A DNA stretch of 64,000 bases, from contig CAVXDX010000004.1 in NCBI GenBank assembly GCA_963760615.1, positions 1 to 64,000 of the forward strand, read 5' to 3'. The notes beneath the pieces were generated by a model. The model was not told the DNA's origin, searched no databases, and saw only the letters and a program-made list of their open reading frames with translations. Positions 918 through 14,614 of this stretch are shown here, in pieces (within the stretch, counting starts at the first letter, position 1; the number at the start of each line of letters is the position of its first letter). This DNA comes from an uncultured Candidatus Micrarchaeota archaeon (GTDB lineage: Archaea; Micrarchaeota; Micrarchaeia; Burarchaeales; Fermentimicrarchaeaceae). A program made the position numbers and the translations under genes.

Positions 918-945
918 ATACAGAATAGTATTTAAAATACAGAAT
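918..945 (+). promoter_or_regulatory. TATA box of the V4R operon flanked by a 9-bp direct repeat (candidate operator)
   Basis: ATACAGAAT occurs at 918-926 and 937-945, around TTTAAAAT (931-938). An SD-like AGGGTGA sits just before the ATG at 968. Confidence 0.4.
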
Positions 946-967: not shown

Positions 968-1312
968 ATGGGGAGACAGGCAAACGACCAGGGTGAGCAT
1001 AAATGGCGCCATCTCCGGGTGCTAGTGAAGCCCCAGAATCAGGCGATAATACATTTGCTTAGCGATGGCAAGCCCCGCATGCCTGTCGAGATATGCCGTG
1101 AATTGAAAGCATTTCCGAAAGCAACCCTTTACATAGCGATGAGGGAGCTTGTGATGAAGAAAATATTGATTCCGAAGATAATAGAGGATAAGGGGAAGAG
1201 GAGGAAGACACTTACCGAGATACTTGGTTATACATTGGATGAGGATGTCTCTGAGCTGGTGAGGATGCTGAATGAGGCAGATAAGCTGGCTGAGAACATA
1301 TCCATGAGGTAG
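968..1312 (+). CDS. Winged helix-turn-helix transcriptional regulator (ArsR/PadR-like), first gene of the V4R operon
   Basis: 'AIIHLLSDGKPRMPVEICRELKAFPKATLYIAMRELVMKKIL' followed by a wing ending in 'GYTL'. ATG 968 is preferred over GTG 962 because of SD spacing. Confidence 0.75.
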   Translation: MGRQANDQGEHKWRHLRVLVKPQNQAIIHLLSDGKPRMPVEICRELKAFPKATLYIAMRELVMKKILIPKIIEDKGKRRKTLTEILGYTLDEDVSELVRMLNEADKLAENISMR

Positions 1313-1825
1313 ATGGATTTGAAAGCAATGGTGTCAATTGAAAAGGGCCTTGTTGTCGTTGCTGGGCAGAGGTCAGTTCTCATACCGCCCAGCTTCATAA
1401 CACTGCTTCAGGACCGGGTGATGCAGGAGAAAGGAGAGAAATGGAGGGCGATATTCTACGAAGCGGGAAAGAAGGCACTAGAGGAAATAGCGCCAACCTA
1501 CAAGATGCTTCTGATGATTCCAAGAAATTCTGAAACATCAAAGAAAAAACTGATTGATGGAGTGGTTGAAATCTGGTCCTGGATGAGCTGCGGAAGGCCG
1601 GAAGTCACGAAAATGGACTTCAAGAGAAACAAATTCACATGTAGGTTCTACGACTCCGTTATTGCAAAACCATACATCGGGAGGGGGGACATGATGTGTG
1701 ATTACTTTTCTGGAGTGATAGCCGGCGGCTTCGGCTCCCTACTGGGGGTTAAGCTGAAATGCAGGGAAGTCAAATGCATCGCGCATGGGGATGAATTCTG
1801 CGAGTTTGAAGTTGAGGGTGTTTGA
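1313..1825 (+). CDS. V4R domain protein 1 (A-type, AGQR motif)
   Basis: N-terminal 'AGQR..L', 'FYEAG', 'MCDYFSG..AG' and C-terminal 'EVKCIAHGDEFCEF' (C...E-x2-C-x3-G-x3-C-x-F zinc motif). Confidence 0.9.
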   Translation: MDLKAMVSIEKGLVVVAGQRSVLIPPSFITLLQDRVMQEKGEKWRAIFYEAGKKALEEIAPTYKMLLMIPRNSETSKKKLIDGVVEIWSWMSCGRPEVTKMDFKRNKFTCRFYDSVIAKPYIGRGDMMCDYFSGVIAGGFGSLLGVKLKCREVKCIAHGDEFCEFEVEGV

Positions 1826-1826
1826 A

Positions 1827-2357
1827 GTGGAATACATAAAAAAGAAGGGCAAGGACCTGTTCATATTCGGCAAGCAGATTGTTGTCCTAGATGTCAGAGG
1901 GCTTTACCACATGAAAAAGGAGCTTGAGAAAGGTGTGGAGAAGCCGGATGAGATGCTTTACGAGGCTGGCAGGCTTTCTCTTATGGAAATTCACGAAAGC
2001 CTTGTCGCTTCCTTGGGGGATGCTGCCGAAACGATTCTCTCAGACAGGGAAAGCGCCCTTGACATGCTGGTCGATGCACTCAACCACTTGGGGCTTGGCG
2101 AGATATCTGTTCTAGAATTCAAGCCTGAGATAAAGTTTACAGTGAAGCACTCCGCAGGGGCGCAGGATTACATGAACAGGAAGGAGATGAGCAGGCATCC
2201 CACATGCTATGCGCTTGCGGGAATGTTTGCTGCCGTATCTGAGAAGCTACTTCAGACTCCTGTTATATGCAAGGAGACCAGATGCATTGCTTGCGGGGAT
2301 GAGGTTTGCGAATTTGTCATTCAGAATAATGCGAGAAAAAAAGAGGATGTAGGATGA
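1827..2357 (+). CDS. V4R domain protein 2 (B-like)
   Basis: 'GLYHMKKELEK', 'LYEAG', 'LNHLGLG', 'PTCYALAG' and 'ETRCIACGDEVCEF'. The GTG start at 1827 follows the upstream stop and a GAGGGTG SD. Confidence 0.9.
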   Translation: MEYIKKKGKDLFIFGKQIVVLDVRGLYHMKKELEKGVEKPDEMLYEAGRLSLMEIHESLVASLGDAAETILSDRESALDMLVDALNHLGLGEISVLEFKPEIKFTVKHSAGAQDYMNRKEMSRHPTCYALAGMFAAVSEKLLQTPVICKETRCIACGDEVCEFVIQNNARKKEDVG

Positions 2358-3442
2358 TATCCATGGTTCTCTCAGAAAATGAGGAGAAAATACTGAAGTC
2401 AATAATAGTGCCATCTGAGAATGACCCGCGTAAGCCTGAGTTCCCGCCAGACAAGCCGAGTTTCCCGGCCACACCGACCTACAAAATTGATGTGCCTGGT
2501 TTTTCCAATGTGTGGCTTAAAGACGAGAGTACGAACCCGACAGGGACTCACAAGGATAGGATGGCTTGGGAGATGGTTGTGACCTACAGGGATTTCCTTC
2601 TTGCCAAGAAGAGGGGGCAGATAAAAGGTCCCTTGCCCCACCTTTCCATTATTAGCTTCGGTTCCGCAGCCATTGCAATTCAAAACCAACTGAGAAAATA
2701 CAATCTACCTAATTTGAAGGTTCTGATTGATACTGATTTCATTGACCCCATTCTCCTAAAGGCACTCAAAAAGATGAAATGCGAGATTTACGAAACCGAT
2801 TTATCCAAGAAACCTCTTACTTTTAGAGAAATTCTCATTTTGACCCACAATCAGAACGGGTTTGATATTACATCCAATGAGGCTTTGGACCCAACGACTA
2901 GGTTCTACGACTGGCTGAGCTATGAAATAATAAACAATTCACCCGATTACGTTTTCATCCCATTTGGCACTGGAAATCTCTATGAAAATGTGCTGAACAC
3001 CACAAAAAAGGAAACTTCGACAAAAATCCATGACCCCAGATTCAAGGGTGATATAAACAAACTGAGAAACTGCAATTTTCTTGGTGCAACCACGAATAAT
3101 CCAAAGAGTAAAGCAGATAAGCTCTATTCTCCCCACCTGCCATTTGTCCACTACGATGAACAGTGGATTAGATTCTACAGATGCGCAGGATTCTGTGGCC
3201 CCCATTCAGGAGTTCATCTGATAAAAGAGGAGTTTTTGGATGAAGCCATAAATATAGCAAAATCGCAGGGAATAAATTTCGAGCCTTCCGGTATGGGCGG
3301 CCTGGCTCTAATGCTGCAGATGAAAAATAATCTTCCAAGAAACAAAAAGATGCTCATAGTCAGCACCGGAAAAACAAAAATCCCGCCAATTTGGCTCGGG
3401 GATGAGCTTTGTGAGTGTGTTATAAACGCTAAAAAGAGGTGA
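2354..3442 (+). CDS. PLP-dependent fold-type II enzyme (threonine synthase/cysteine synthase-like), substrate unknown
   Basis: 'VWLKDESTNPTGTHKDRMA' (Schiff-base Lys), 'SFGSAA', phosphate loop 'PFGTGNL' and 'EPSG'. ATGA overlap with V4R-2. Confidence 0.8.
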   Translation: MISMVLSENEEKILKSIIVPSENDPRKPEFPPDKPSFPATPTYKIDVPGFSNVWLKDESTNPTGTHKDRMAWEMVVTYRDFLLAKKRGQIKGPLPHLSIISFGSAAIAIQNQLRKYNLPNLKVLIDTDFIDPILLKALKKMKCEIYETDLSKKPLTFREILILTHNQNGFDITSNEALDPTTRFYDWLSYEIINNSPDYVFIPFGTGNLYENVLNTTKKETSTKIHDPRFKGDINKLRNCNFLGATTNNPKSKADKLYSPHLPFVHYDEQWIRFYRCAGFCGPHSGVHLIKEEFLDEAINIAKSQGINFEPSGMGGLALMLQMKNNLPRNKKMLIVSTGKTKIPPIWLGDELCECVINAKKR

Positions 3443-3446
3443 GTGG

Positions 3447-3977
3447 ATGATAGACAAGGACATAAAGCATGAGGTAATTATTGAAGAGGGGAAGACGACA
3501 ATTGCCGGTCAGAGAGCTATGCTGCTCTCTGTGAAGACAATAGCCACGCAGCAGAAGGAGCTGGAAAGGCTTGTTGGAGAGAAATGGGGTGCTGTTGTCT
3601 ACGAAGCGGAGAGGAAAGCAATACAGGAGGCAGCCCTGCAGATTTTCGGGCTGAAGCAGCTTGACTCCTTCACAAAGGGCAAAACATTCGACAAGAAAAG
3701 CATGGTGGAAACATTAATCAGCATATTCAACTGCGCAGGCTACGGGGTGCTGAAGCTGAAGAAATTCGATGAGGTTAAGCCATACGTCCTTGTAACAATG
3801 GAGAAGTCGACAATCCCACAGGAGTATGAGGAGAGGGATTCCCCGGTCTGCTTCAGGGTTGCAGGCATCCTTGCAGGAGGTTCAGAGGCGGTGTTCATGG
3901 TACCTATGAAGTGCAAGGAAAAGAAATGCATGTCGATGGGAGATTCGCACTGCGAGTTTGAGATAATGAGAAGGTGA
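3447..3977 (+). CDS. V4R domain protein 3 (A-type)
   Basis: 'IAGQRAMLLS', 'PVCFRVAGILAG' and 'EKKCMSMGDSHCEF'. GAGGTGAG SD upstream. Confidence 0.9.
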   Translation: MIDKDIKHEVIIEEGKTTIAGQRAMLLSVKTIATQQKELERLVGEKWGAVVYEAERKAIQEAALQIFGLKQLDSFTKGKTFDKKSMVETLISIFNCAGYGVLKLKKFDEVKPYVLVTMEKSTIPQEYEERDSPVCFRVAGILAGGSEAVFMVPMKCKEKKCMSMGDSHCEFEIMRR

Positions 3978-4537
3978 ATAGCTTGAGAGACATGGTAGAA
4001 ACCATAAAGTTAGAAGAAGGGAAAGTTACCATGTGCGATATGCCTATATTATTTGTTTTCACTAAATCCGTCTACTATATGCAGAAAGAATTGGAAGGAG
4101 TGCTAGGTGAGAAGTGGAAGAGAATGATGTATGAATGTGGCAAGAATGATGCGATGATTACTGTATCGGGCTTTTTTACATTGTTCCAGAATGAGGATAA
4201 GATAAAAGAACTGTTGCTTGTTGGCAAACCAGACCCCCTGAATAAAGCCGAATCTATGCAGTTCTTTACGGACCAATTCAATAAAATGGGTCTTGGGAGA
4301 GTGGAGATGGCAGAAACAGATACCAAAAAACTATCTTTTGTCCTGAGATTCTATTTCAGTCCAGTTGCGCAAGCCTATCTGGAACATGAGAAAAGCACTG
4401 AACCAGTATGCCACTATTTCTCGGGTTTGTGGTCCGGGGCATCTTCAACTTTCTATCCGGGTCTAGAAGCTTTTGAAAAGAAGTGCATGTCACGAGGAGA
4501 CCCCTACTGTGAGTTTGAAGTAAAAATGAGGCGATGA
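3974..4537 (+). CDS. V4R domain protein 4 (B-type)
   Basis: 'EEGKVTMCDMP..FTKSVYYMQKELE', 'FNKMGLG', 'PVCHYFSG' and 'EKKCMSRGDPYCEF'. GTGA overlap with V4R-3. Confidence 0.9.
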   Translation: MNSLRDMVETIKLEEGKVTMCDMPILFVFTKSVYYMQKELEGVLGEKWKRMMYECGKNDAMITVSGFFTLFQNEDKIKELLLVGKPDPLNKAESMQFFTDQFNKMGLGRVEMAETDTKKLSFVLRFYFSPVAQAYLEHEKSTEPVCHYFSGLWSGASSTFYPGLEAFEKKCMSRGDPYCEFEVKMRR

Positions 4538-4538
4538 T

Positions 4539-5075
4539 ATGAAACACATGATAGACACTCTCAAAATTGAGGAAGGGAAAGTTTTGATGAACGGAGTGCC
4601 CTTCACCTTTACCATGACAAAGTCTATTTACTATACACAAAAAGAGTTCGAAAAGATAATCGGGGAGAAATGGAAGAGGCTCTTTTACGAGCGTGGCAGA
4701 ATTGATGCAGTTGCTACCGTTGCCGGCTTCCTTGGAATGTTCCATAATGCTCCAGAAATAAATAAATTGCTTGCAGATAGACTAGAAGGCGTGCGATTCA
4801 GCATGAACGAATACAACAAGATGGGGTTGGGAAGGGCAGAGATGATAAAGGCAGATCCTGAAAAACCACTCTTCGTCTTCAGATACTACTTCAGCCCGGG
4901 TGCAGTCGCATACATAGAGCATGAGAAATCAAAAGAGCCGGTCTGCTACCATTTTGCAGGCATATGCGCTGGCGCGGTCTCAATTTTCTACCCCGGCATT
5001 GAAGCGACTGAAATTAAATGCATAGCCATGGGCGATCCTTACTGCGAGTTTGTCGCTAGCATTCTGAAGAGGTGA
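4539..5075 (+). CDS. V4R domain protein 5 (B-type)
   Basis: 'TKSIYYTQKEFE', 'YNKMGLG', 'PVCYHFAG' and 'EIKCIAMGDPYCEF'. Confidence 0.9.
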   Translation: MKHMIDTLKIEEGKVLMNGVPFTFTMTKSIYYTQKEFEKIIGEKWKRLFYERGRIDAVATVAGFLGMFHNAPEINKLLADRLEGVRFSMNEYNKMGLGRAEMIKADPEKPLFVFRYYFSPGAVAYIEHEKSKEPVCYHFAGICAGAVSIFYPGIEATEIKCIAMGDPYCEFVASILKR

Positions 5076-5079
5076 TGAG

Positions 5080-5616
5080 ATGAAACATATGGTAGAAACG
5101 ATGAAACTCGAAGAAGGGAAGGTGACAATGTGCAACCTTCCACTTACATTCACTTTTACCAAGTCAGTCTATTATATGCAAACAGAGTTAGAGAAGACAT
5201 TAGGAGATAAATGGAAGAAGATAGCGTATGAGTGCGGAAAAATTGATGGGGCCGTGTGTAATTCCAATTTTGCTGCAATGTTTCATAATGATCCTGATTT
5301 GATAAAACTAATCTCTGATAAATCGCAGGGTTTTAACTTCTGTGTGACTGAATATAATAGAATGGGTAAAGGTAAACTAGAGGCCGTAAAGGCCGATACA
5401 GAAAAATTCTCTTTTATTCTAAGAATGTATTTTAGTCCCATCGCCTTGGCGTATCTGGAACATGAGAAGACAACAGAACCCGTATGTTACCATATCGCTG
5501 GGATATTTGTTGGAGCAGGAAATATATTTTACCCTGGAATAGAGGCTGTTGAGACGAAGTGTCTGGCTAAAGGAGATCCGTATTGTGAATTTGTGATTGA
5601 AATACCAAAGAAGTGA
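5080..5616 (+). CDS. V4R domain protein 6 (B-type)
   Basis: 'FTKSVYYMQTELE', 'PVCYHIAG' and 'ETKCLAKGDPYCEF'. Confidence 0.9.
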   Translation: MKHMVETMKLEEGKVTMCNLPLTFTFTKSVYYMQTELEKTLGDKWKKIAYECGKIDGAVCNSNFAAMFHNDPDLIKLISDKSQGFNFCVTEYNRMGKGKLEAVKADTEKFSFILRMYFSPIALAYLEHEKTTEPVCYHIAGIFVGAGNIFYPGIEAVETKCLAKGDPYCEFVIEIPKK

Positions 5617-5620
5617 TTGT

Positions 5621-6157
5621 ATGAAGCATATGGTTGAACTAATGAAACTTAGTGAAGGAAAAATTACTCTATGCGATTTACCGATAATATTCACCTTTAC
5701 AAAATCAATGTATTATATTCAAAAAGAGCTTGAAAAAGTGGCAGGAGAATCATGGAAGAAAATACTCTATGAATGTGGCAAGATCGATGGCATAGGCTGT
5801 AATTCGAACTACGTAGGCATCTTTCACAATGATCCAGATTTTCAAAAACTTGCATCTGATAAATTTGGTGCTTTTAGTTTCTGCGTTGATGAGTTCAACA
5901 GGCTTGGAAAAGGACGGTTAGAGATAGTAACTGCAAATAAGGAGAAACCGCTCTTTATATTGCGGTATTATTTCAGTCCCATAGCATTAGCTTATCTAGA
6001 ACATGGCGGAGCTGCTGAACCGATTTGTTACCATTTTGCCGGAGTATTCTCTGGAGCCGCTAATATAGTCTACCCAGGCATAGAAGTAGTTGAGACTAAA
6101 TGCCTCGCGACGGGTGATCCTTACTGTGAGTTTATATTCGAAATACCAACAAAATAG
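5621..6157 (+). CDS. V4R domain protein 7 (B-type)
   Basis: ATG 5621 (MKHMVE) is chosen by alignment with paralogs 5 and 6. Motifs 'PICYHFAG' and 'ETKCLATGDPYCEF'. Confidence 0.9.
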   Translation: MKHMVELMKLSEGKITLCDLPIIFTFTKSMYYIQKELEKVAGESWKKILYECGKIDGIGCNSNYVGIFHNDPDFQKLASDKFGAFSFCVDEFNRLGKGRLEIVTANKEKPLFILRYYFSPIALAYLEHGGAAEPICYHFAGVFSGAANIVYPGIEVVETKCLATGDPYCEFIFEIPTK

Positions 6158-6165
6158 GTGATTCT

Positions 6166-6693
6166 TTGGTCAAGAAATTCGGGAATGACATCATCTTCGA
6201 TGATGGCAAAAGTATCGTTGCAGGTCAAAGAGGACTTCTTCTCAGCATCAAAAACATTGTCAACCAACAGAAAGAAATAGAAAGAGTGGTGGGACAAAAG
6301 TGGGGCTATGTGATATACGAAGCGGAGAGAAAAGCTATCCAAGAGGCCGTCCCGCAGATTATAAGTATTAAAAAAATTGACACACTACTTAAGAATTCTG
6401 AATTTAGTAAGAAGGCGATGGTTCAGAGCCTAATAGATATATTCAATCAAACAGGTTTGGGATTACTAAAACTTAAAACATTTGATGAAAGGAGGTTACG
6501 ATTTGAGGTTGCTGTAGAAAACTCTCCCATTCCAGAAGAATACGAGAAGAGAGATACGCCGGTTTGTTTTCATCTTGCGGGAATATTTGCAGGTGCTGCA
6601 GAAGCCATTTTTATGATGCCCATGGCATGTAAAGAAGTTAAATGTGCTAGTATGGGTGATTCATCTTGCAAATTTGAAATAACGAAGAGGTGA
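6166..6693 (+). CDS. V4R domain protein 8 (A-type, closest to V4R-3)
   Basis: 'VAGQRGLLLS', 'KWGYVIYEAERKAIQEA' (compare V4R-3 'KWGAVVYEAERKAIQEA'), 'PVCFHLAG' and 'EVKCASMGDSSCKF'. TTG start after an AGGTGA SD. Confidence 0.9.
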   Translation: MVKKFGNDIIFDDGKSIVAGQRGLLLSIKNIVNQQKEIERVVGQKWGYVIYEAERKAIQEAVPQIISIKKIDTLLKNSEFSKKAMVQSLIDIFNQTGLGLLKLKTFDERRLRFEVAVENSPIPEEYEKRDTPVCFHLAGIFAGAAEAIFMMPMACKEVKCASMGDSSCKFEITKR

Positions 6694-6697
6694 TTAA

Positions 6698-7228
6698 ATG
6701 GTGGACCTTGTTGATACATTAGCTCTTAACAAAGGAAGGATGTCGCTATCCACAGTTCCATTTGCTATATTCCTCACTAAATCAATTTACTATATGCAAG
6801 AAGAACTTAAAAAGCATACTGGAGATTCTTGGAAAAAAATATTGTACGATAGTGGAAAAACCGATGCGTTTGTTGCTAACACGAGTTATCTGCACATATG
6901 CGCGGAAGATCAAACTTTAAAAAATCTATTGACTGACAATAAAAAAGCCATATATTTCCTAGAACAGCAATATAACAAGATTGGAAAGGGCATAATAAAA
7001 GTAGAATATAACCTCAAACAAGACAGCATAGTACTACTGCAATATAGCCCGATAGCATTAGAGTACGTCGAGCATGGCGGAAGTAAAGAGCCACAATGCT
7101 ACTATTTTGCAGGTGTCTATGCAGGATCTATGTCCATATTCCACCCCGGAGCAGAAGCTAAAGAAACCAAATGCATGGCGAAAGGCGATCCGTACTGTGA
7201 GTTCATAGTAAACCTACAAAGAAAATGA
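6698..7228 (+). CDS. V4R domain protein 9 (B-type)
   Basis: 'TKSIYYMQEELK', 'YNKIGKG', 'PQCYYFAG' and 'ETKCMAKGDPYCEF'. Confidence 0.9.
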   Translation: MVDLVDTLALNKGRMSLSTVPFAIFLTKSIYYMQEELKKHTGDSWKKILYDSGKTDAFVANTSYLHICAEDQTLKNLLTDNKKAIYFLEQQYNKIGKGIIKVEYNLKQDSIVLLQYSPIALEYVEHGGSKEPQCYYFAGVYAGSMSIFHPGAEAKETKCMAKGDPYCEFIVNLQRK

Positions 7229-7277
7229 AAACAAGCAAATTTATTTATACCCTCCTACCATACTTTAAACGACCAGT

Positions 7278-7646
7278 ATGCCTGAAGAAACAATGTTGAG
7301 TGTTTTAGAGGATCTATTAAGAGAAGAAGATATATTGGCTGTAATGCTAGCTAGAAAAAATGAAGTTTCAATTACTCCTCCCCCCAACAAATTCAAATTA
7401 CACGATCCATCTATTTTTGGGCTTTTACAATCAACAATGAACGATTTTTTTACAGTTATAGAAAAATTGGCTGGACAGGGATTAGATAAAGTCTATTTCG
7501 AACTTGGGGACTATGAAGTTATGTTCTTTTTGATATCAGGAGATACTGCTCTAGTAGCAATACTTCCCGCTTTAGCTAATAAAGGTCTTTTGGAAGTAGA
7601 GATGGAGAACACTCGAAGAACTATTAAAAAATTAATTGGTCGATAA
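7278..7646 (+). CDS. Roadblock/LC7 (MglB-like) domain protein
   Basis: 122 aa with a helix / 'ILAVMLAR' strand / helix / beta strands / C-terminal helix layout. 'NKGLLEVEM' matches the roadblock 'N.GL...EM' pattern. It has its own TTTATA box at 7244-7249. Confidence 0.7.
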   Translation: MPEETMLSVLEDLLREEDILAVMLARKNEVSITPPPNKFKLHDPSIFGLLQSTMNDFFTVIEKLAGQGLDKVYFELGDYEVMFFLISGDTALVAILPALANKGLLEVEMENTRRTIKKLIGR

Positions 7647-7647
7647 G

Positions 7648-8925
7648 ATGGTTTTCAAGGCGACTGTAGTCCTGAGCCGTAAATGGGATGCTAGCGAAGC
7701 AGGTGAAGAAATAGGAAAACAAATTAATGAAGTAATTAAGGATAAGCCCAGCTTCGTATTACTATTCTCAACTATCCATTATGAAAAATATGGTGGTTTC
7801 AAAAAATTTTTGGATGCTGTTAATACAAATCTACCTTCAGGTACCCCAATTTTGGGAGGAACAGTCGCAGGATTCATTAATAAATACGGAGCCTATACAC
7901 GAGGAGCCACTGCTTTAGCAGTATATTCTAATGAAATGGATATCGCTATTGGAGTTGGACATGATACCAAAAAAAATCCTAATAAAGCTGCAGAGACTTG
8001 CGCGAGAATGATAAAAAAAGGACTTGCTACAAGCAGATACCGAAATAAATTACTCTTTGAGATTGTTTCAGGGGGTAGAATACCTCCATTCCCCGGAATG
8101 GGGAGGAGAAGGGTTGTAACATCCGGTCTAGTCAGTAAAATAGCAACTGCTTTGACTGATTTTTCTTTAAATGTGCTACAATATGGTGTCGGTAGAGAAG
8201 AAGAGGTTCTAAGTTCCTTGTCCAACCAGCTTCCCGATTATACAATACTCGGTGGTTCTTCAATGGACAATAATACTATGTTAGAAAACTATCAGTTTTT
8301 TGGCAATGATTTTTATAAAAATTCAATAGTGGCTGTTGGAATAAGTACAGATCAGGAAATAAATCTAAACACAACATATGGTTTTAAAGAAACAGGTATA
8401 AAAATAAAAATAACTAAGAAGAGATGGAATATTATTCACGAAATAGATGGACTACCAGCTTTAGACGCTTTCTTAAAACTAATCTCCTGGCCTTATGACT
8501 TCATAGACGAAAGAATATATAGAAAAACGTTCTCTATTCCTCTAGGTTACAGAAAAGACAACATTTTATTCCCAAATGTTATTGGTGGATTTCTGGGCAA
8601 AGATATACTATGCGGTTATAAAATAGAATCTAATGAGCTTGATTTGCTGTCTGCATCTGGAAAGAGCTTAGTGAATGCAGTAGATGAAAATCTAAAAGAA
8701 TTTGAGAATAAAAATAATAAGATTGCAATAATTGTTGAATGTGGCATTAGGTTAGAGGCGATAGGTGCAAACATTTTTATTACGCGAGACAAACTCCTCA
8801 ATTTTTTTGGAGAAACTCCATTCATTTTAATATATACCGCCGGTGAAGATGCATATAGCCTAAAAAAAGGAAAACGACACGTTAATGGCAGTTTTAATGT
8901 CGTAACAATATCCAACCCTGATTAA
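7648..8925 (+). CDS. FIST (FIST_N + FIST_C, NosP-like) domain protein
   Basis: 'PSFVLLFS', 'PILGGTVAG', 'ILGGSS.D', 'IHEIDGLPALD', 'IVECGIR' and 'IYTAGE' are recurring FIST motifs. Confidence 0.85.
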   Translation: MVFKATVVLSRKWDASEAGEEIGKQINEVIKDKPSFVLLFSTIHYEKYGGFKKFLDAVNTNLPSGTPILGGTVAGFINKYGAYTRGATALAVYSNEMDIAIGVGHDTKKNPNKAAETCARMIKKGLATSRYRNKLLFEIVSGGRIPPFPGMGRRRVVTSGLVSKIATALTDFSLNVLQYGVGREEEVLSSLSNQLPDYTILGGSSMDNNTMLENYQFFGNDFYKNSIVAVGISTDQEINLNTTYGFKETGIKIKITKKRWNIIHEIDGLPALDAFLKLISWPYDFIDERIYRKTFSIPLGYRKDNILFPNVIGGFLGKDILCGYKIESNELDLLSASGKSLVNAVDENLKEFENKNNKIAIIVECGIRLEAIGANIFITRDKLLNFFGETPFILIYTAGEDAYSLKKGKRHVNGSFNVVTISNPD

Positions 8926-9022
8926 TAATCAATTATTTATACAAACCGCATCCAATTTTTTCCGTACTCTTTCAAACTTTAATACATTTGTTTTATACCT
9001 CTCCCTTCTAGTCTTATTTCTG

Positions 9023-9124
9023 ATGACCATGCTGGTCAATGCGACTTTTTGTTCGGCCTGCGGCTCCGGCGGATTAGTAACAATCAAAATATTAAAGATG
9101 GCATATCTACTTCCCCCAATCTAG
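9023..9124 (+). CDS. Candidate 33-aa peptide MTMLVNATFCSACGSGGLVTIKILKMAYLLPPI
   Basis: Own translation. TTTTATA at 8991-8997 lies about 26 nt upstream of the ATG, which is leaderless-promoter geometry. Confidence 0.25.
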   Translation: MTMLVNATFCSACGSGGLVTIKILKMAYLLPPI

Positions 9125-9147
9125 CCCCAACAGCTAAGTCTAACATA

Positions 9148-10212
9148 CTACCACCCGATATTCGAAATTTCATAGGCTTTGTAAATATCAGCATATTCTC
9201 TATAAAATAATCTTGAGATAAAATAACTACGAATTCCATATCCACCAGCAAATGGTTTTATATGACGATTTAACTCTTGATTATTCATTCTACTCAGTCT
9301 CTCAAACGCTTTATTAAATAGTGGCGATGCATAATAAGACAGAACCCACCGTTTTTCATACCTATCTAGATTTCTCTCAATAACTGCTTCAGCCGCCATT
9401 TTGGCTGCATTCATACCGGATCGAATACCACCTTTAGTTAGTGCATTTGTTTGACATGCCGCATCGCCAACTAAAAGTATTCTTCCATTAATAAACCTAT
9501 CTACCCCGCCGTAGCCTATTACTCTAGTCTGCTTGGTTAGAAATTTACCAGCATATGCCAAATTCTTAAGTAACGGAAAACCAATTTTTTTCGTACACCC
9601 ATTTGGAAATACCCAGCTATAATCACCTTTATATTTTTCATCATAGTAGAAAAATAAAGTATCATGTATGGGCTCTTCATCCACTATATACTGAATAACT
9701 GGAGTAATTCTGCCCCCCCAGATCCCAAGCGTTTTTCTAAACATCGAATTTGCACCATCCGCAGCTACAACATAATCAAATCTTCTTACAGTACCCTTAG
9801 AGAATTTAACAACAACTTTATTCCTGTTCTGCGAAAAATCCGAAATATTTTCTACTTTAAAATCCCCACCAATCTTCTCGTACCAGCTAATAATATTCTC
9901 TAAAAACCGAGGTCTATTGAGTACATAACCGTTTGTCTTCATTGTATTCTCGATTTTACCGGGCCAAAGATCTTTGAGATATCTTATTCTCTCAACAATA
10001 GCAGTCGGTTTTATCGGTTTTATATCATTAAAACAATCCTCACTTATGACCTCACCGCAAATACTATGATAAATATCAAACTTATCTTTGGTTAATCTCT
10101 CAACAAGGGTAACATTCAACTCATCATCTTTATCAAAATATTTCAAGAAAAAAGCAGCAGCGCATCCAGCAGGTCCAGCTCCAACAACCAGCACATCACA
10201 CTTCATTGTCAT
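9148..10212 (-). CDS. Geranylgeranyl reductase-family flavoprotein
   Basis: 'DVLVVGAGPAG', 'CGE', 'VVAADGANS', 'YSWVFPNG' and 'LLVGDAACQTNALTKGGI'. Confidence 0.8.
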   Translation of the reverse strand: MTMKCDVLVVGAGPAGCAAAFFLKYFDKDDELNVTLVERLTKDKFDIYHSICGEVISEDCFNDIKPIKPTAIVERIRYLKDLWPGKIENTMKTNGYVLNRPRFLENIISWYEKIGGDFKVENISDFSQNRNKVVVKFSKGTVRRFDYVVAADGANSMFRKTLGIWGGRITPVIQYIVDEEPIHDTLFFYYDEKYKGDYSWVFPNGCTKKIGFPLLKNLAYAGKFLTKQTRVIGYGGVDRFINGRILLVGDAACQTNALTKGGIRSGMNAAKMAAEAVIERNLDRYEKRWVLSYYASPLFNKAFERLSRMNNQELNRHIKPFAGGYGIRSYFISRLFYREYADIYKAYEISNIGW

Positions 10213-10309
10213 GTAGCACCTATTTACTCAACTAATATTTAAATTGGCGGTACAAAGATATATACCCCTATAACATCAGTAAAATAAGTTATTACGGGCA
10301 GGGATTTGC

Positions 10310-11554
10310 GTGACTAACTGCATAATTGCAGGAGGAGGACTGGCGGGTCTAGCTGCGGCTTATACTATACAGAATAGCAAGAATGACATCTCATTATTAG
10401 AAGCCGAAAATAGAGTCGGAGGTAGGATACTCACCATACCCTATCACGGTAGATTCATGGATTTAGGTGCTCAGTTCTACTGCAAGGGAAATCATAAATT
10501 TTGGAATCTCGCAGCTGCAATTGGCTGTTCAACTCCGAAGATCATCAAAGGTCTCATCCCAAATATCTATCATCAAAATCGTAGACTTCTGTTAACACCA
10601 AAGAGTATCCTGCTGAACACCTCACTTAAAGAAAAGATAGAACTATCAAAACTACTCTATAAGTTAAATCGATTTGATTATAATTCCGATCTTAATATAG
10701 ACAATGACATTACCTTTAGTGAGTGGTACTATAACCACATTGGCAATGAAATGCTATGGCTTTGCGATACCCTCCTACATGGTGTTTGCTTCTCACACTC
10801 CAATAAAATATCAGCCGGTTATGCATTTAGAATCCTCAAGGCCATGTTAGCAGATAAAATTTATACCTTCAATAGAGGACTGGGCGAGATAAATACAAAA
10901 CTCGAGAATTTTTTAAATAGTAGAAAAAACGTACATCTTATCTTGAAAGCGGATATAAAACAAATAAATGTAGAGAATGACAATGTATCTGACTGCACCT
11001 ATGAATTTCAAGATAATTTAGTTAATGCAAAGACAAACAAATTAATTTCAACTATACCTGCTCCAATTCTGTACAAAGTATTAAACCAAAAGATAAAACC
11101 ACTAAGTGAAATCGAATATAGCCCTACTATATATCTTCTGCTCCTCTATGATAAATATATGCAAGGAGACTTAGACCTCTTCTTCACTGACCCGAAATTT
11201 CCTATAAGCGGAACTGCAAATGAGATGCATAAATTTCAAGGTAGCAACTTGGGTGCATTAGGCGTTCTGTTCCCAGATTGTGGAAAAATTATCAACAAGA
11301 CAAATGACCAAATAACTAACCTAGCTATCGATCTACTTTCAGATAAATTACCTCTTAATGAAAAACACATCACAGGAAGCATGGTTCTACGTTGGCATTA
11401 CAGTATGCCTGTACCATCACCGCAATTTTTCATTAATCAAAACAAAATAAAAAATCATGGAATTGGTGGTTTGTATGTATGTGGTGATTTTATGAGTATG
11501 CCAAGTCTAGAAGGAGCAATGTTAAGTGTGCATGACTCGCTTAATTTAAAATAA
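10310..11554 (+). CDS. FAD-dependent oxidoreductase, amine oxidase/protoporphyrinogen oxidase (HemY)-like
   Basis: 'IIAGGGLAGL', 'LEAENRVGGR', 'DLGAQF', 'RWHYSMP' and 'CGDFM..PSLEGA'. GTG start. Confidence 0.75.
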   Translation: MTNCIIAGGGLAGLAAAYTIQNSKNDISLLEAENRVGGRILTIPYHGRFMDLGAQFYCKGNHKFWNLAAAIGCSTPKIIKGLIPNIYHQNRRLLLTPKSILLNTSLKEKIELSKLLYKLNRFDYNSDLNIDNDITFSEWYYNHIGNEMLWLCDTLLHGVCFSHSNKISAGYAFRILKAMLADKIYTFNRGLGEINTKLENFLNSRKNVHLILKADIKQINVENDNVSDCTYEFQDNLVNAKTNKLISTIPAPILYKVLNQKIKPLSEIEYSPTIYLLLLYDKYMQGDLDLFFTDPKFPISGTANEMHKFQGSNLGALGVLFPDCGKIINKTNDQITNLAIDLLSDKLPLNEKHITGSMVLRWHYSMPVPSPQFFINQNKIKNHGIGGLYVCGDFMSMPSLEGAMLSVHDSLNLK

Positions 11555-11640
11555 TACGCCGTAAAATTTTCAAAAAAGTTTTTAGTGTTAGTATAAATTT
11601 TTTAACAAACATCTTTCCAATCTCCCCAACAACCAGCACA

Positions 11641-12285
11641 TCACAGTCCATTCGAGCCACCATTAAACATCCCATTTGACTCTTCAGTATTCACCTGCCT
11701 CACAACTATTTCGTCAGGAGTGTCCATCACTATAAACTCATACATACTTCTTATAATTCTGTTGGCGTACCCCCCGACCAGATGGTAGAATAGGTCAAAC
11801 ATCAGGAATGCCAGGAAGTATATAGGTGCAAATACTCCGAAGGCTACAAGAAGTAACATCACGGCCTGCATGCTGAACCTGAAGTGGAAGAAAGTTTTCC
11901 AGAATCTGGAGTTTATGAGCCCCAAATCGGACTGGTTGTTCCCAATCTCATCAATCACTCCGCCAAAAATCAATGCGGCTATGGGAAGCCAGTTCAGCAC
12001 TACGGAATTTGCCAAGAATATCGGAATTGCAAATGCAACTACCGTGGCAACCATGAAAACAGAGGTGTCTATCTTCCTAGTCACTGCCACTCCTACAATA
12101 ACTGCGATTCCTATGGAGGATGAAGTAGCATCAGTTGCCATGACGTACCCGCCGAGTAGCCCGCAGATTAATCCCAGTATCGCTGCAACTCTCTTATCAA
12201 ACACTCCCTCATCGTAAACACAATCAATGTACTTCAAACCCGCACCGAGGAAAGCAAAGCTGGCAAGCAGAAACCAATACTCCAT
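11641..12285 (-). CDS. Polytopic membrane protein with Asp-rich loops
   Basis: About six hydrophobic segments with the motifs 'KYIDCVYDE', 'KID', 'IDEIGNNQSD', 'FFHFRF' and 'FDLFY'. Confidence 0.6.
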   Translation of the reverse strand: MEYWFLLASFAFLGAGLKYIDCVYDEGVFDKRVAAILGLICGLLGGYVMATDATSSSIGIAVIVGVAVTRKIDTSVFMVATVVAFAIPIFLANSVVLNWLPIAALIFGGVIDEIGNNQSDLGLINSRFWKTFFHFRFSMQAVMLLLVAFGVFAPIYFLAFLMFDLFYHLVGGYANRIIRSMYEFIVMDTPDEIVVRQVNTEESNGMFNGGSNGL

Positions 12286-12337
12286 TTACATCACATCTGG
12301 TCGCAGCTTAAATTAACTTCGGAGGAGCTATTTATAC

Positions 12338-12787
12338 TTATCCTCCAGTCACCCTGAAACCATTAGTAACCTTCTTCACAAGCTTGTGGAAAACATAACC
12401 CCTATACTTCAGCTCAAGAAACAGCTGCACTGAATTGTCGCTCCTAATTATGTCAAATATCTTCACCTTGCTTCTGAAAGGAGCGAGCAGCACATCCACA
12501 TCAACACGATACCCCCTTTCCCCGCCAGAAATTGTAATCATGCCTATTCCCTTCTGTATGTAGAACTTCACATCCCCCGTTGCAATTTTATCCAGTATAG
12601 CTATAGCTCTATCGCAATCTGTCTCCTTCACATAAAACTTCAGCTGCTCTTTCTCAAGCATTATACCGTATATGTTTATCCCGCCCTTCCCCAGATAGCC
12701 CAGCACGTTAATTAGTATCTTATGGCTCTTCGGGCTCCCTTTCACAATCACATTCGCAAGGGGGTGCTTCAGCATCTTCAGTTCCAT
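12338..12787 (-). CDS. Stand-alone tandem ACT-domain protein (resembles the aspartokinase regulatory domain)
   Basis: 'ANVIVKG...ILINVLGYLGKGGINIYGI...LKFYVKE.D.DRAIAIL' followed by 'GIGMITISG'. Confidence 0.6.
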   Translation of the reverse strand: MELKMLKHPLANVIVKGSPKSHKILINVLGYLGKGGINIYGIMLEKEQLKFYVKETDCDRAIAILDKIATGDVKFYIQKGIGMITISGGERGYRVDVDVLLAPFRSKVKIFDIIRSDNSVQLFLELKYRGYVFHKLVKKVTNGFRVTGG

Positions 12788-12837
12788 ACCTAATATTCTC
12801 TAATAATAAGTATATAAAAATAACAGAAAGAACGAGC

Positions 12838-13557
12838 CTACTTCTCCACCACTATTCCCTTCGGCCCAATGCTCATCGTCCTGGCGAGGAAATCATGCTT
12901 CGTCAACCTCATCTTCTCAACAACCATCGTCCTCTTGCCCAAAGCTTCAATCTTCGCCATCTTCACTACTCCATCAACCAGGTATTCGCATGTCTCCTTG
13001 GCGCTCTCAAACGTCCTCTCCTCGTAGATATACATCACCGTGCTTGTATCCGCCTCCCTCAGCCTCCTTATGAATCTTGTAGTCAATGCCCTCAGCAGCA
13101 TGTCCTCGGATATGGGCATCCCGCCGACCTTCTTCAGAGCCTCGAATATCTGGTCATTCACAAACTCCTCCCTGCTCAGTGGAAGCTTGCTCAGGAATGA
13201 TGTGAGGGAGTCAACCACAACTCTGGCGGGCTTGAACGTCTTTATATCAGAAACAATCATCCCCTCCATGTCAGGCTCTCGGGTTATATCATAGTTCTTG
13301 AATTCCACAGGAAGACTCTTGAAATCCCAACCAAATAATTCGGCCTGCTGCGTGAGGCTCTCCTCCCCCTGTGTGAAGCTGATGTACGTCCCCTTGTCCT
13401 TGTACTGCTTTGCCCCGTTGTACAAATACTGCAAGCCCAGAATGGTTTTCAAAGTACCTGGAGAACCTTTCACAAGTATTGCGGCACCCTCAGGAAAACC
13501 GCCCTCAATTATCTTATCCAATTCCTCAATGCCAGTCGGAATCCTCTTGATCGCCAT
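12838..13557 (-). CDS. Single-domain KaiC/RAD55-like (RecA superfamily) ATPase
   Basis: 'RIPTGIEELD.IIEGG.P', Walker A 'GSPGTLKT', Walker B 'VVVDS', 'YLVDGVV' and 'VEKMR'. Confidence 0.85.
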   Translation of the reverse strand: MAIKRIPTGIEELDKIIEGGFPEGAAILVKGSPGTLKTILGLQYLYNGAKQYKDKGTYISFTQGEESLTQQAELFGWDFKSLPVEFKNYDITREPDMEGMIVSDIKTFKPARVVVDSLTSFLSKLPLSREEFVNDQIFEALKKVGGMPISEDMLLRALTTRFIRRLREADTSTVMYIYEERTFESAKETCEYLVDGVVKMAKIEALGKRTMVVEKMRLTKHDFLARTMSIGPKGIVVEK

Positions 13558-13729: not shown

Positions 13730-14593
13730 CTACTTCTCAACATTTAAAAACTCAACTATGGGCTCGACGTTCAAACCCAGCTCCAGCTTCCTTATCTTCT
13801 TCAAATCAGCCCACATTGCTATGCTGTGCTCTACTCCAAACTTCACCTTCCTCCCCCCCATTCCCTCAAATACAATGTAAACAGAGTGTTTTGTAATCTT
13901 CCCCTTCTTGTAAACCCTAGAGCTTGTGCAGAGCAGTTTCAACCCCTTTATTTTCAGGCCAGTCTCCTCCAGCACCTCCCTCCTCACAGCTTTTTCAGGA
14001 GATTCGCCCCACTCCACCCCTCCACCTGGAAACTCCCATACTTTTGGCTCTCTTCTCTTCATTACAAGAATTCTCCTTTTGGAATCCCTCACAACTGCGT
14101 ATACATTAAGCTCCTGCACTTTGCCCCTCATGGAATCAACCTCTTGTGTGAGTCTCATCATTCTCCTAAAAGCAGCACTCTTGCTTCCAAGATGCTTTTC
14201 AATCCTCGCTATTTTATTATTATCTGAAAACTTGTCTGCATAACAGACAATCTTCTCCTCAAGCGTTTCAGGGATGAAATCCCTTGCAGGCAACCCCATC
14301 AACTCTGCCTCTTCCCTACTTATCCCCCCAAGGACATGCCTCTCCACAACTCTTGCAACCTTCTCACGCTCACCTTCTTTTCTTAATATCCTTCCACCGA
14401 AATACCCATGCTCCAGCCCATGGGTGACGCTTCTCCCAACATCATGAAGCAATGCCGCCCTCTCAACAAGCTCCACATCAACCTCAAACCCATTCCTCCT
14501 CAGCTCGCATGCAATTTCAAGAGCAATTTTTGCAACTTTTTTTGAATGAGCAACAACATTCTTAGGCAGTTTGTACTTCAAAAGCAGATTCAT
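13730..14593 (-). CDS. HD (HDIG)-family phosphohydrolase fused to a C-terminal Nudix hydrolase
   Basis: N-terminal 'HS..V...A', 'LLHDVGR', 'H...GG' and 'YAD'. C-terminal Nudix box 'GGGVEWGESPEKAVRREVLEETG'. Confidence 0.85.
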   Translation of the reverse strand: MNLLLKYKLPKNVVAHSKKVAKIALEIACELRRNGFEVDVELVERAALLHDVGRSVTHGLEHGYFGGRILRKEGEREKVARVVERHVLGGISREEAELMGLPARDFIPETLEEKIVCYADKFSDNNKIARIEKHLGSKSAAFRRMMRLTQEVDSMRGKVQELNVYAVVRDSKRRILVMKRREPKVWEFPGGGVEWGESPEKAVRREVLEETGLKIKGLKLLCTSSRVYKKGKITKHSVYIVFEGMGGRKVKFGVEHSIAMWADLKKIRKLELGLNVEPIVEFLNVEK

Positions 14594-14614
14594 GTTGTAA
14601 TTATGCAACAAAAC

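Follow-up and report, generated by a model that had tools for sequence, protein, structure and literature searches.

Does a row of nine V4R genes in one archaeal genome, headed by a small winged helix-turn-helix (wHTH)-like gene and followed by genes for a Roadblock-fold and a FIST protein, represent a single signalling system? The question is raised by positions 968–8925 of a 64,000-nucleotide (nt) stretch of contig CAVXDX010000004.1 (positions 1 to 64,000, hereafter the window) from a tiny, uncultured archaeon of symbiotic type that belongs to the genus Candidatus Fermentimicrarchaeum (Micrarchaeota), whose 1.14-Mb genome (GCA_963760615.1) is 91% complete. A preliminary description of the locus had proposed one undescribed archaeal chemosensory or signalling system, in which a bank of receptors would signal through the wHTH protein, the Roadblock and FIST proteins or a nearby KaiC ATPase. 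Our analysis upholds most of the gene assignments but not the unity of the system. The locus is best read as the expansion of a family of stand-alone V4R sensors that belongs to KaiC-type signalling neighbourhoods, and not as a self-contained new system. More specifically, we favour a bank of V4R ligand sensors or adaptors that feeds KaiC-type signalling and lies beside a conserved Roadblock–FIST–KaiC module, a reading whose chances of being right or wrong we judge to be evenly balanced.

The identity of the nine proteins is firmly established. All of them exceed the curated Pfam cut-off for V4R (PF02830; 31 bits for a core of 62 residues), with scores of 33.9–63 bits, and a six-frame search of the genome returned these same nine places as the sole V4R matches. 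Twelve columns are invariant in the nine-protein alignment, including C129, E152, C155, G159, D160, C163 and F165 (V4R1 numbering), and the motif C...E-x2-C-x3-G-x3-C-x-F, which had been noticed at the outset, is thus common to all nine. A profile of the family aligns over positions 11–172 of 179 with residues 32–191 of the MopR sensor domain (PDB 5kbe; E-value 1.8e-8) and over positions 83–176 with MJ1460 (PDB 2osd; 6.5e-9), the latter being the best sequence match in the PDB. In the profile alignment with MopR, the invariant C129, E152, C155 and C163 fall on C155, E178, C181 and C189, the zinc ligands of that protein. Cysteine-based zinc binding has also been reported for PoxR (PMC10933270). 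Judged by these alignments, each V4R protein is a complete sensor domain of the MopR/MJ1460 type with a predicted Cys–Glu–Cys–Cys zinc site of the MopR/PoxR kind, in line with the V4R assignment made at the outset. The profile also produced weak matches to H-NOX proteins (E-value about 0.01), consistent with the known relationship between the V4R and H-NOX folds. All nine proteins stand alone, without an output domain, so that the suggested decoupling of sensor and output holds at the level of the polypeptide chain.

The most regular neighbour of such proteins in the phylum is a gene for a KaiC-like ATPase. Of 21 Micrarchaeota genomes examined outside the genus, 16 have short V4R genes (150–270 amino acids) beside a gene for a KaiC-like ATPase; three lack this arrangement and two are cut by contig ends. 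The two reading frames often touch or overlap. The link to KaiC proposed at the outset is thus corroborated by comparative genomics. For V4R proteins of 330–396 amino acids from other families, none of 13 loci (families f13 and f17; L105, L107, L147, L151, L152, L156–L160, L163, L165 and L167) has a KaiC gene at a distance of up to 1.5 kb; a single 396-amino-acid gene (G138) lies directly beside one. In the 330–370-amino-acid proteins of f13 and f17, the V4R domain occupies the N-terminal half and the C-terminal part is without a Pfam match. In another phylum, 7 of 30 V4R loci have a KaiC gene, and 2 of 30 a FIST gene, at a distance of up to 1.5 kb; by a rough estimate from some seven KaiC genes per 1.1 Mb, a KaiC gene would be expected there by chance in about 2% of loci. 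A complex prediction for an adjacent KaiC–V4R pair (from G125) scored 0.00 and gives no verdict either way.

The genome under study encodes seven KaiC-like proteins, a large share for 1.14 Mb. Besides the one in the window, there are paralogues on the same contig (contig 4, a tandem pair at 108895–110387) and on contigs 14 (at 108826), 15 (at 29874) and 8 (at 93641). In a phylogenetic tree the V4R-linked KaiC clades are distinct from the Roadblock-linked ones, and one of the V4R-linked clades has three KaiC paralogues of this genome as its sisters. Two relatives offer a further combination. A 269-amino-acid protein (G188, L109:4902–5711) joins a TATA-binding-protein (TBP) repeat (PF00352, 24.1 bits, just above the cut-off) to a C-terminal V4R domain and is encoded between two KaiC-like genes, and a similar protein of 260 amino acids (G244, L108:5281–6063) has an N-terminal part without a Pfam match. 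The present genome itself contains two single-repeat TBP genes (PF00352, 104–106 bits; open reading frames of 106–115 amino acids) on contig 4 at 102589–102834 and on contig 8 at 107696–107938.

The locus comprises 13 co-directional plus-strand genes at 968–8925, as delimited by the listing of open reading frames and by family scans. The order of a small wHTH-like gene, nine stand-alone V4R genes, Roadblock and FIST is as originally described; a gene for a pyridoxal phosphate (PLP)-dependent enzyme inside the array and a TATA-like element before the Roadblock gene had been overlooked. The features are given below together with the genes that follow. A and B denote the two paralogue types discussed further on, bit scores of V4R proteins refer to PF02830, and identities and ratios of non-synonymous to synonymous substitution (dN/dS) refer to the congener Sv326.

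931–940, plus strand: TATA-like box ATTTAAAATA, about 30 nt 5′ of the wHTH start within the 168-nt divergent intergenic region; putative function, from a reading of the sequence.
968–1312, plus strand: wHTH-like protein of 114 amino acids, a probable DNA-binding regulator; heads the unit, with GGTGA 7 nt upstream.
1313–1825, plus strand: V4R1, 170 amino acids, type A; 43.4 bits; start abuts the wHTH stop; Sv326 orthologue 76% identical, dN/dS 0.14.
1827–2357, plus strand: V4R2, about 176 amino acids, basal type B, fast-evolving; 50.8 bits; Sv326 orthologue 55% identical, dN/dS 0.18.
2363–3442, plus strand: PLP-dependent fold-type II enzyme, 359 amino acids; PF00291, 53.9 bits; between V4R2 and V4R3.
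3447–3977, plus strand: V4R3, 176 amino acids, type A; 49.9 bits; GAGGTGA over the upstream stop; Sv326 orthologue 93% identical, dN/dS 0.05.
3974–4537, plus strand: V4R4, 187 amino acids, type B; 33.9 bits; 4-nt overlap with V4R3; Sv326 orthologue 91% identical, dN/dS 0.17.
4539–5075, plus strand: V4R5, 178 amino acids, type B; 38.8 bits; no one-to-one Sv326 orthologue.
5080–5616, plus strand: V4R6, 178 amino acids, type B; 39.3 bits; GAGGTGA over the V4R5 stop; the copy nearest to the remnant in G004.
5621–6157, plus strand: V4R7, about 178 amino acids, type B; 40 bits; frame opens at 5597, likely ATG at 5621; Sv326 copy 5 82% identical, dN/dS 0.08.
6166–6693, plus strand: V4R8, 175 amino acids, type A, sister of V4R3; 63 bits; AGGTGA upstream; this genome only.
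6698–7228, plus strand: V4R9, 176 amino acids, divergent type B; 39 bits; GAGGTGA over the V4R8 stop; this genome only.
7240–7249, plus strand: TATA-like element TTTATTTATA, about 33 nt 5′ of the Roadblock start; function likewise putative.
7278–7646, plus strand: Roadblock-fold protein, 122 amino acids, of an AF0774-like family (PF27410 on close homologues); assigned from an AlphaFold2 model and Foldseek.
7648–8925, plus strand: FIST protein, about 425 amino acids; frame opens at 7636, start 1 nt past the Roadblock stop; PF08495, 84.1 bits.
9148–10212, minus strand: flavoenzyme of the geranylgeranyl-reductase family, convergent on FIST; TIGR02032 at 4e-32, below the cut-off; Pfam motifs for binding flavin adenine dinucleotide (FAD).
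10310–11554, plus strand: amine-oxidase/phytoene-desaturase-like flavoenzyme; PF01593, 72 bits; NCBIfam HpnE/PPO/CrtI-like matches below cut-off; syntenic in Sv326.
11641–12285, minus strand: multi-pass membrane protein, here called h214, with three to five hydrophobic segments and no Pfam match.
12338–12787, minus strand: ACT-domain-like small protein; NCBIfam aspartate-kinase C-terminal regulatory region at 1.8e-6, far below the cut-off; syntenic in Micrarchaeota only.
12838–13557, minus strand: single-domain KaiC-like ATPase of the Roadblock-module clade; PF06745, 134.8 bits; Sv326 copy 89% identical, dN/dS 0.05.

The window KaiC gene is adjoined by a gene for a fusion of an HD domain with a NUDIX domain (293 amino acids; 13730–14611, minus strand), which is syntenic in Sv326.

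The packing of the 13 genes divides the run in two. Likely starts were used to measure the gaps, namely GTG at 1827 for V4R2, ATG at 5621 for V4R7, 2363 for the PLP enzyme and 7648 for FIST; the V4R2 frame opens at 1785, and its likely start lies 2 nt past the V4R1 stop and is preceded by GAGGGTG. On this basis the gaps from wHTH to V4R9 range from −4 to +8 nt, the exception in the whole run being the 49 nt before the Roadblock gene. GGTGA occurs within 12 nt upstream of 6 of the 13 starts, against an expectation of 0.016 per site, and at V4R3, V4R6 and V4R9 it extends over the stop codon of the preceding gene, so that the tight junctions and Shine–Dalgarno motifs over stop codons that had been pointed out are confirmed. 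Upstream of the Roadblock start, a search for a Shine–Dalgarno motif found none. Since the 49-nt gap holds TTTATTTATA, the Roadblock start has no Shine–Dalgarno motif and a similar TATA-like box (931–940) precedes the first gene, we infer two transcription units, one from wHTH to V4R9 and the other consisting of the Roadblock–FIST pair. The pair probably has a promoter of its own, and the element at 7240–7249 suggests that its transcript is separate and near-leaderless. Among sequencing runs, sets of DNA reads matched small shares of the stretch (0.07–0.19), and no RNA set was listed. A scan for sigma-70 promoters and terminators yielded no enrichment over shuffled sequences, but the scan model is bacterial and not applicable to archaea.

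How far the array is conserved can be judged within the genus. In Ca. Fermentimicrarchaeum limneticum Sv326 (G002, CP058998.1), the same flanks enclose six V4R genes and no PLP gene, and the neighbourhood is thus kept in another genome. In a third species (G004) the order is PLP–wHTH–Roadblock–FIST. Directly after the wHTH stop of the latter (L012:7952–8141), there is a piece encoding 46 C-terminal residues of a type-B V4R protein, which ends in ...EFVIEIPKK as V4R6 does; to judge from its sequence, this remnant is the scar of a deletion of the array. Across the phylum, 189 of 401 genomes (including the unpublished G061 and G216, neither of which underlies any specific claim) have V4R, and more than three matches occur in three of them only: this genome with nine, the highest number, Sv326 with six and G254, from another family, also with six. 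The same three genomes are those with a tandem array of single-domain V4R genes. To Podar et al. (2008), the seven V4R proteins of Ignicoccus were ‘an unusually large number’ (PMC2253512). Altiarchaeota-type genomes reach 7–8 V4R domain matches, mostly in dispersed double-V4R proteins and not in tandem, so that high copy number as such is not unique. These double-V4R proteins are 375–490 amino acids long, with two domains per chain (L122, L124–L126, L129, L130 and L146).

A maximum-likelihood tree pairs V4R1, V4R2, V4R3, V4R4 and V4R7 with Sv326 copies 1, 2, 3, 4 and 5, respectively, while V4R5, V4R8 and V4R9 have no one-to-one partner there. It separates two types, A (V4R1 and the pair V4R3/8) and B (V4R2, V4R4, V4R5, V4R6, V4R7 and V4R9), which follow each other along the array as A-B | A-B-B-B-B | A-B. 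In G254 an independent four-gene array behind a KaiC gene alternates 1-2-1-2 between two clades. Because this alternation resembles the A/B order, and because double-V4R fusions exist, we consider that the data suggest that V4R domains work in pairs. The orthologue pairs shared with Sv326 have dN/dS values of 0.05–0.18, with dS partly saturated; such purifying selection indicates that the retained copies are functional genes. The array is a genus-specific, unstable birth-and-death expansion of two paralogue types. Its confinement to one genus, with G254 as the one independent case of more than three copies in the phylum sample, does not support the notion of one conserved system.

The Roadblock–FIST pair has a different history. 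The AlphaFold2 model of the 122-residue protein, which shows the alpha–beta–alpha fold of Roadblock proteins, is of high quality (predicted local distance difference test, pLDDT, 92; predicted template-modelling score, pTM, 0.86), and Foldseek returned 79 PDB matches at an E-value of 0.001 or less. The top matches are Asgard Roadblock3 (9jue), Thor Roadblock (7f8m) and MglB, with template-modelling (TM) scores of 0.69–0.78, 9jue and MglB reaching 0.76–0.78 at a probability of 1.0. There are 345 strongly conserved homologues, some of which bear the JGI name Roadblock/LC7/MglB, and PF27410 (AF0774) is present in the precomputed annotation of close ones; the Atlas score is 0.99. PF03259 did not match this protein at E-values up to 5, nor did a six-frame search of the genome find it at 0.01 or less. 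Thus, the roadblock identity proposed earlier stands for the fold, but not for the Pfam family. The FIST assignment is likewise secure for the FIST N domain, PF08495 being matched at 84.1 bits (cut-off 23.2; 1.5e-23), whereas FIST_C (PF10442; residues 275–404) remains at 17.1 bits against a cut-off of 28.5 that the FIST genes of related loci pass. With 58.7 bits against 450 for NF041558, the equivalog model of the haem-based NO sensor NosP, the resemblance is one to FIST proteins in general, and sequence searches of the PDB with the Roadblock and FIST proteins gave no matches.

We surveyed 80 genome loci, each built around a homologue of the Roadblock-fold protein, with denominators that vary by feature. 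They cover Micrarchaeota, an Iainarchaeon, Altiarchaeota, Thermoplasmatota, Aenigmatarchaeota and Nanohalarchaeota, that is, at least six phylum-level groups. A FIST gene directly follows the Roadblock gene on its 3′ side in 47 of 60 loci, and a KaiC-like gene lies just 5′ on the same strand in 30 of 70; h214 is present in 29 of 80 loci, often between KaiC and Roadblock, and in 32 of 51 an FAD oxidoreductase of the geranylgeranyl-reductase type is encoded no more than 5 kb from the Roadblock gene. V4R, by contrast, is found at a distance of up to 10 kb in no more than 4 of 78 loci. Tables of called genes with Pfam annotation agree with this survey. The window holds the complete module at 7278–13557 (Roadblock, FIST, two flavoenzymes, h214, the ACT-like protein and KaiC), and in the tree its KaiC groups with the syntenic Roadblock-linked KaiC genes of other Micrarchaeota and of an Iainarchaeon. 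Roadblock–FIST is therefore an independent module found across archaeal phyla, and the array is placed beside it and is not part of it. Given the 4 of 78 loci and the probable promoter of the pair, the idea that wHTH, V4R, Roadblock and FIST form one conserved system finds no support. A 195-amino-acid gene between KaiC and Roadblock in one locus (L021) was considered as a divergent V4R and rejected; it has no V4R match, gives weak matches to membrane proteins and belongs to the h214 family. In a related member of the Micrarchaeia (L019:15842–20360), the syntenic KaiC gene is flanked by AbiEii/AbiEi and by nucleotidyltransferase/HEPN pairs, so that a defence or toxin–antitoxin islet borders the module.

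Roadblock proteins usually partner Ras-like small GTPases. In this 91%-complete genome no clear Ras-like GTPase was found: PF00071 gave weak matches only, inside open reading frames of 274–600 amino acids (E-values 1.3e-4 to 6e-3), and the model also matches in all 14 control genomes. No small-GTPase Pfam family was seen in the surroundings of the window Roadblock gene or in those Roadblock loci that were inspected one gene at a time; the 80-locus survey used the gene families of the window only, and GTPases were not searched there. This would leave the KaiC-like ATPase as the obvious candidate for the nucleotide triphosphatase (NTPase) of the module. The literature searched contained no relevant paper on a FIST domain with KaiC in archaea, or on V4R with FIST.

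The flavoenzymes of the module bring up a first alternative, namely that the V4R proteins are carriers of hydrophobic cargo, which would bind isoprenoid or lipid intermediates, possibly derived from a host, and hand them to the enzymes resembling geranylgeranyl reductase and desaturases. BchJ, for which a role as a substrate carrier has been proposed, offers a parallel. The array indeed lies 2 kb from a flavoenzyme of the geranylgeranyl-reductase family and one of CrtI/HpnE-like type, and the Roadblock–FIST module is itself linked to such flavoenzymes, as the 32 of 51 loci testify. Moreover, the related TRAPPC3 fold binds palmitate, and V4R domains have been described as binders of hydrophobic molecules (PMC2253512, PMC10933270). 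We nevertheless regard this alternative as unlikely. Outside the genus V4R almost never accompanies the flavoenzyme module (the same 4 of 78 loci), what regularly adjoins it in the phylum is a gene for a KaiC-like ATPase rather than for a lipid enzyme, and the unit has no membrane anchor or lipid-transfer partner.

The 114-amino-acid protein that heads the array is less easily classified. It had no Pfam match and a single NCBIfam match of 17 bits against a cut-off of 121, and a sequence search of the PDB gave only noise. Its AlphaFold2 model is weak (mean pLDDT 63, with a core at residues 21–65 reaching 74–84). Foldseek matches to this low-confidence model are wHTH regulators, all at E-values above 0.3 and none at 0.001 or less. 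The top 50 matches of VIA-align are nearly all winged-helix proteins, mostly transcription regulators, at Z-scores of 5.4–6.5, a level that the tool calls common. Neighbours in the language-model-based Atlas (0.90–0.93) all belong to helix-turn-helix families, with the MarR/ArsR/HxlR type at 0.93. Fourteen close homologues were found, all from Micrarchaeia where named. A profile search against 1.84 billion representatives returned four clusters, whose remote relatives show sub-threshold matches to FUR, PadR, TrmB and HTH_20. The gene is under constraint, with a dN/dS of 0.07 against Sv326. The winged-helix identity given to it at the outset hence survives as probable, on structural and language-model neighbours, and without a family assignment; the protein is probably an orphan winged-helix, DNA-binding regulator. 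A protein in which wHTH (HTH_24) and V4R are fused is encoded in G011.

The PLP-dependent enzyme seems to be a stranger to the array. In this protein, labelled ‘PLP-dependent lyase/thiolase’, the lysine motif T-H-K-D-R corresponds in alignment to GSIKDR of O-acetylserine sulfhydrylase, and there are 1577 homologues of 74–94% identity from DPANN archaea and bacteria of the candidate phyla radiation (CPR). They come from Woesearchaeota, Diapherotrites, Micrarchaeota and CPR/Patescibacteria, and to find an enzyme of unassigned reaction so well conserved in both domains is unusual. The gene lies 5′ of wHTH in G004 and is missing from the Sv326 locus. It is probably a passenger. The idea that the enzyme makes a V4R ligand was set aside, because it is 74–80% identical across DPANN and CPR organisms and its position shifts within the genus.

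The proximity of a wHTH-like gene to V4R1 raises a second alternative, that the wHTH protein and one or more V4R proteins are a split version of the methanogen regulator MsvR, a transcription factor sensitive to redox through thiols or zinc, in which the cysteine cluster would act as the switch. The MsvR model NF053755 is matched by V4R1 and V4R8 with 30.6 and 33.3 bits (2.6e-7 and 3.7e-8), the wHTH stop abuts the V4R1 start and the fusion in G011 provides a single-chain precedent; in addition, MsvR is reported to bind DNA in a redox-dependent manner through the cysteines of its V4R domain (PMC3729527). The matches, however, cover model positions 147–236 only, the V4R part, and fall far short of the cut-off of 220 bits, and the MsvR layout of an N-terminal wHTH and a C-terminal V4R in one chain is not seen here, where the parts are separate genes. 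The cysteines in question align with structural zinc ligands of MopR, nine copies would be needless for one redox switch, and the wHTH gene is kept without V4R in G004 and L071. We consider such a redox regulator quite improbable.

Base composition and divergence change along the window in a way that suggests a third possibility. The guanine-plus-cytosine (G+C) content is 0.35–0.40 over roughly 4001–12000, that is, across the type-B V4R genes, Roadblock–FIST and the flavoenzymes, as compared with 0.43–0.51 in the rest of the window; together with presence and absence within the genus, this may be the mark of a segment that was acquired laterally or is under different constraints. For the FIST protein, identity is only 37% with the Sv326 copy and 37–44% across congeners (L011:11456–12703, L012:8521–9798), and its neighbours have remained much closer (Roadblock 76–87%, KaiC 89%, wHTH 82–91%); either rapid divergence or replacement by a distant copy would produce this pattern. 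One might then imagine the V4R proteins as fast-turnover immune receptors that detect small molecules of invaders or of a host. The presence of the locus in some congeners only, the variable copy number, the compositional shift between 4 and 12 kb and the divergence of FIST (37% as against 76–91% for neighbours) would all be in keeping with such a role, as would the Abi and HEPN/MNT genes near the syntenic KaiC of a relative and a preprint on V4R–wHTH and V4R–effector immune systems (10.64898/2026.10.19.760177). Yet Pfam scans found no TIR, HEPN or nuclease effector domain in the unit, and the defence models of PADLOC-DB 2.0, a 2023 release without the V4R systems of the 2026 preprint, gave no match at an E-value of 0.01 or less for ten proteins of the locus. 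Strong purifying selection acts on the retained orthologues, three of five pairs being 82–93% identical, and the flanking module is conserved across phyla in the manner of housekeeping genes. An immune function is thus very improbable. Slimmer still are the chances of a TRAPP-like structural or tethering complex of V4R hetero-oligomers and the Roadblock protein, for which speak the fold and dimerisation that V4R shares with Bet3/TRAPPC3 (PMC2253512, PMC10933270), the A/B pairs and double-V4R fusions suggestive of heterodimers and the Roadblock-fold gene behind the array, since none of the nine paralogues matches TRAPP Bet3 (PF04051; Pfam scan, E-value 0.01 or less), V4R and Roadblock genes show no joint conservation, a separate promoter is probable for the Roadblock gene, and the zinc site and full MopR alignment point to the sensor branch of the fold.

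The reading that we prefer, a bank of V4R sensors or adaptors serving KaiC-type signalling, can be put in the form of a mechanism. The locus would have arisen by lineage-specific multiplication of stand-alone V4R proteins that in this phylum normally work with KaiC-like ATPases; the copies would have been gathered under a promoter shared with the wHTH-like gene and parked beside the Roadblock–FIST–KaiC module. The V4R proteins, probably as homodimers or A/B heterodimers, would each bind a different small ligand, likely hydrophobic or aromatic. Through protein–protein contacts, the state of occupancy might then reach the KaiC-like ATPases, the co-transcribed wHTH protein or both, with the tuning of transcription, or of the lipid-modifying enzymes encoded nearby, as the outcome. 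For ligand binding, dimerisation and signal transfer we extrapolate here from what is known of the family (MopR/PoxR, MsvR, TRAPPC3) and from gene context, and the ‘multi-ligand receptor bank’ of the preliminary description is an extrapolation of the same kind. The word chemosensory is another matter, as nothing examined points to chemotaxis.

Several facts weigh against the preferred reading. No KaiC gene adjoins the array in this genome: the nearest, at 12838–13557, is a member of the Roadblock-module clade and lies on the opposite strand, at a distance of 5.6 kb. The assignment of the wHTH-like protein is only moderately firm, and its gene persists where V4R genes have been deleted or are absent (G004, L071), so that it may regulate the whole locus and not act as a partner of the V4R proteins. 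Furthermore, three congeners (G001, G003 and G005, 89–91% complete) have no V4R above the cut-off and no Roadblock match; with the whole locus missing from them, it must be regarded as accessory.

It is tempting to go one step further, although we think it rather unlikely that the full picture is correct. A/B-heterodimeric V4R proteins could be exchangeable, ligand-specific inputs of an undescribed DPANN switch built on a KaiC-like ATPase, which would also use Roadblock and FIST; with nine inputs, a host-dependent cell could monitor many metabolites or host lipids and respond in its lipid remodelling or its transcription. If true, this would be an archaeal counterpart of a receptor array, in which a RecA-type ATPase takes the place of a kinase or small GTPase. 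Should the V4R proteins merely be duplicated carriers, the array would be a lineage curiosity.

Stand-alone V4R proteins are common in archaea, and the literature searched contained no description of a tested function for any of them. Two testable regularities emerge that we did not find described there, the partnership of short V4R proteins with KaiC-like ATPases in Micrarchaeota and the Roadblock–FIST module across archaeal phyla. The array appears to be a tractable entry to these two conserved, unstudied gene partnerships, and it supplies nine natural specificity variants for ligand screens.

Among the known systems that come close are the V4R/XylR_N domains of the bacterial NtrC-type phenol regulators MopR, PoxR and DmpR (5kbe, 5fru), with which the present proteins share 162 aligned positions, the matched Cys/Glu/Cys/Cys residues and a fold that binds small molecules. 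They differ in being stand-alone proteins of 170–187 amino acids with no AAA+ or DNA-binding domain, and in forming nine tandem archaeal paralogues. MJ1460 of Methanocaldococcus jannaschii (2osd, 2oso) is likewise a single-domain archaeal V4R protein of similar size, but has Ile instead of Cys at the first zinc-ligand position of the alignment. MsvR of methanogens (NF053755) has a V4R domain with a cysteine cluster, and a winged-helix gene lies immediately upstream here; MsvR, however, is one fused polypeptide, whereas the present genes are separate, score 30–33 against 220 bits and come from a non-methanogen. Thor-TRAPPC3 and the eukaryotic Bet3-family subunits of TRAPP form dimers and have an alpha/beta fold related to that of V4R, and Thor-TRAPPC3 has a zinc site built of cysteines (PMC10933270). 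Unlike these, the present proteins give no Bet3 match, align with sensor-type V4R domains and have no longin subunits encoded nearby. The protein at 7278–7646 has the same fold as MglB and the Asgard Roadblock proteins (9jue, 7f8m, 3t1s, 6hjm), from which it differs in its identity of only 12–17%, in the unmatched PF03259 and in its conserved neighbours, FIST and a KaiC-like ATPase.

The recent preprint predicts immune systems in which V4R forms fusions with ParA, wHTH or effector domains and is coupled to an asparaginase (10.64898/2026.10.19.760177). They, too, combine V4R, wHTH and a P-loop NTPase; in the present locus the NTPase is KaiC-like, nothing is fused and neither an effector nor an asparaginase is present. 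Finally, Makarova, Galperin and Koonin reportedly presented archaeal KaiC-like ATPases as signalling hubs in 2017. If V4R proteins are inputs of KaiC-type ATPases, they would give a concrete handle on these proposed but untested networks. As in such hubs, the genome described here has seven KaiC-like genes, and KaiC genes have those for small ligand-binding proteins (V4R, FIST, ACT-like) as neighbours; what sets the present array apart is that in this window it is detached from any KaiC gene.

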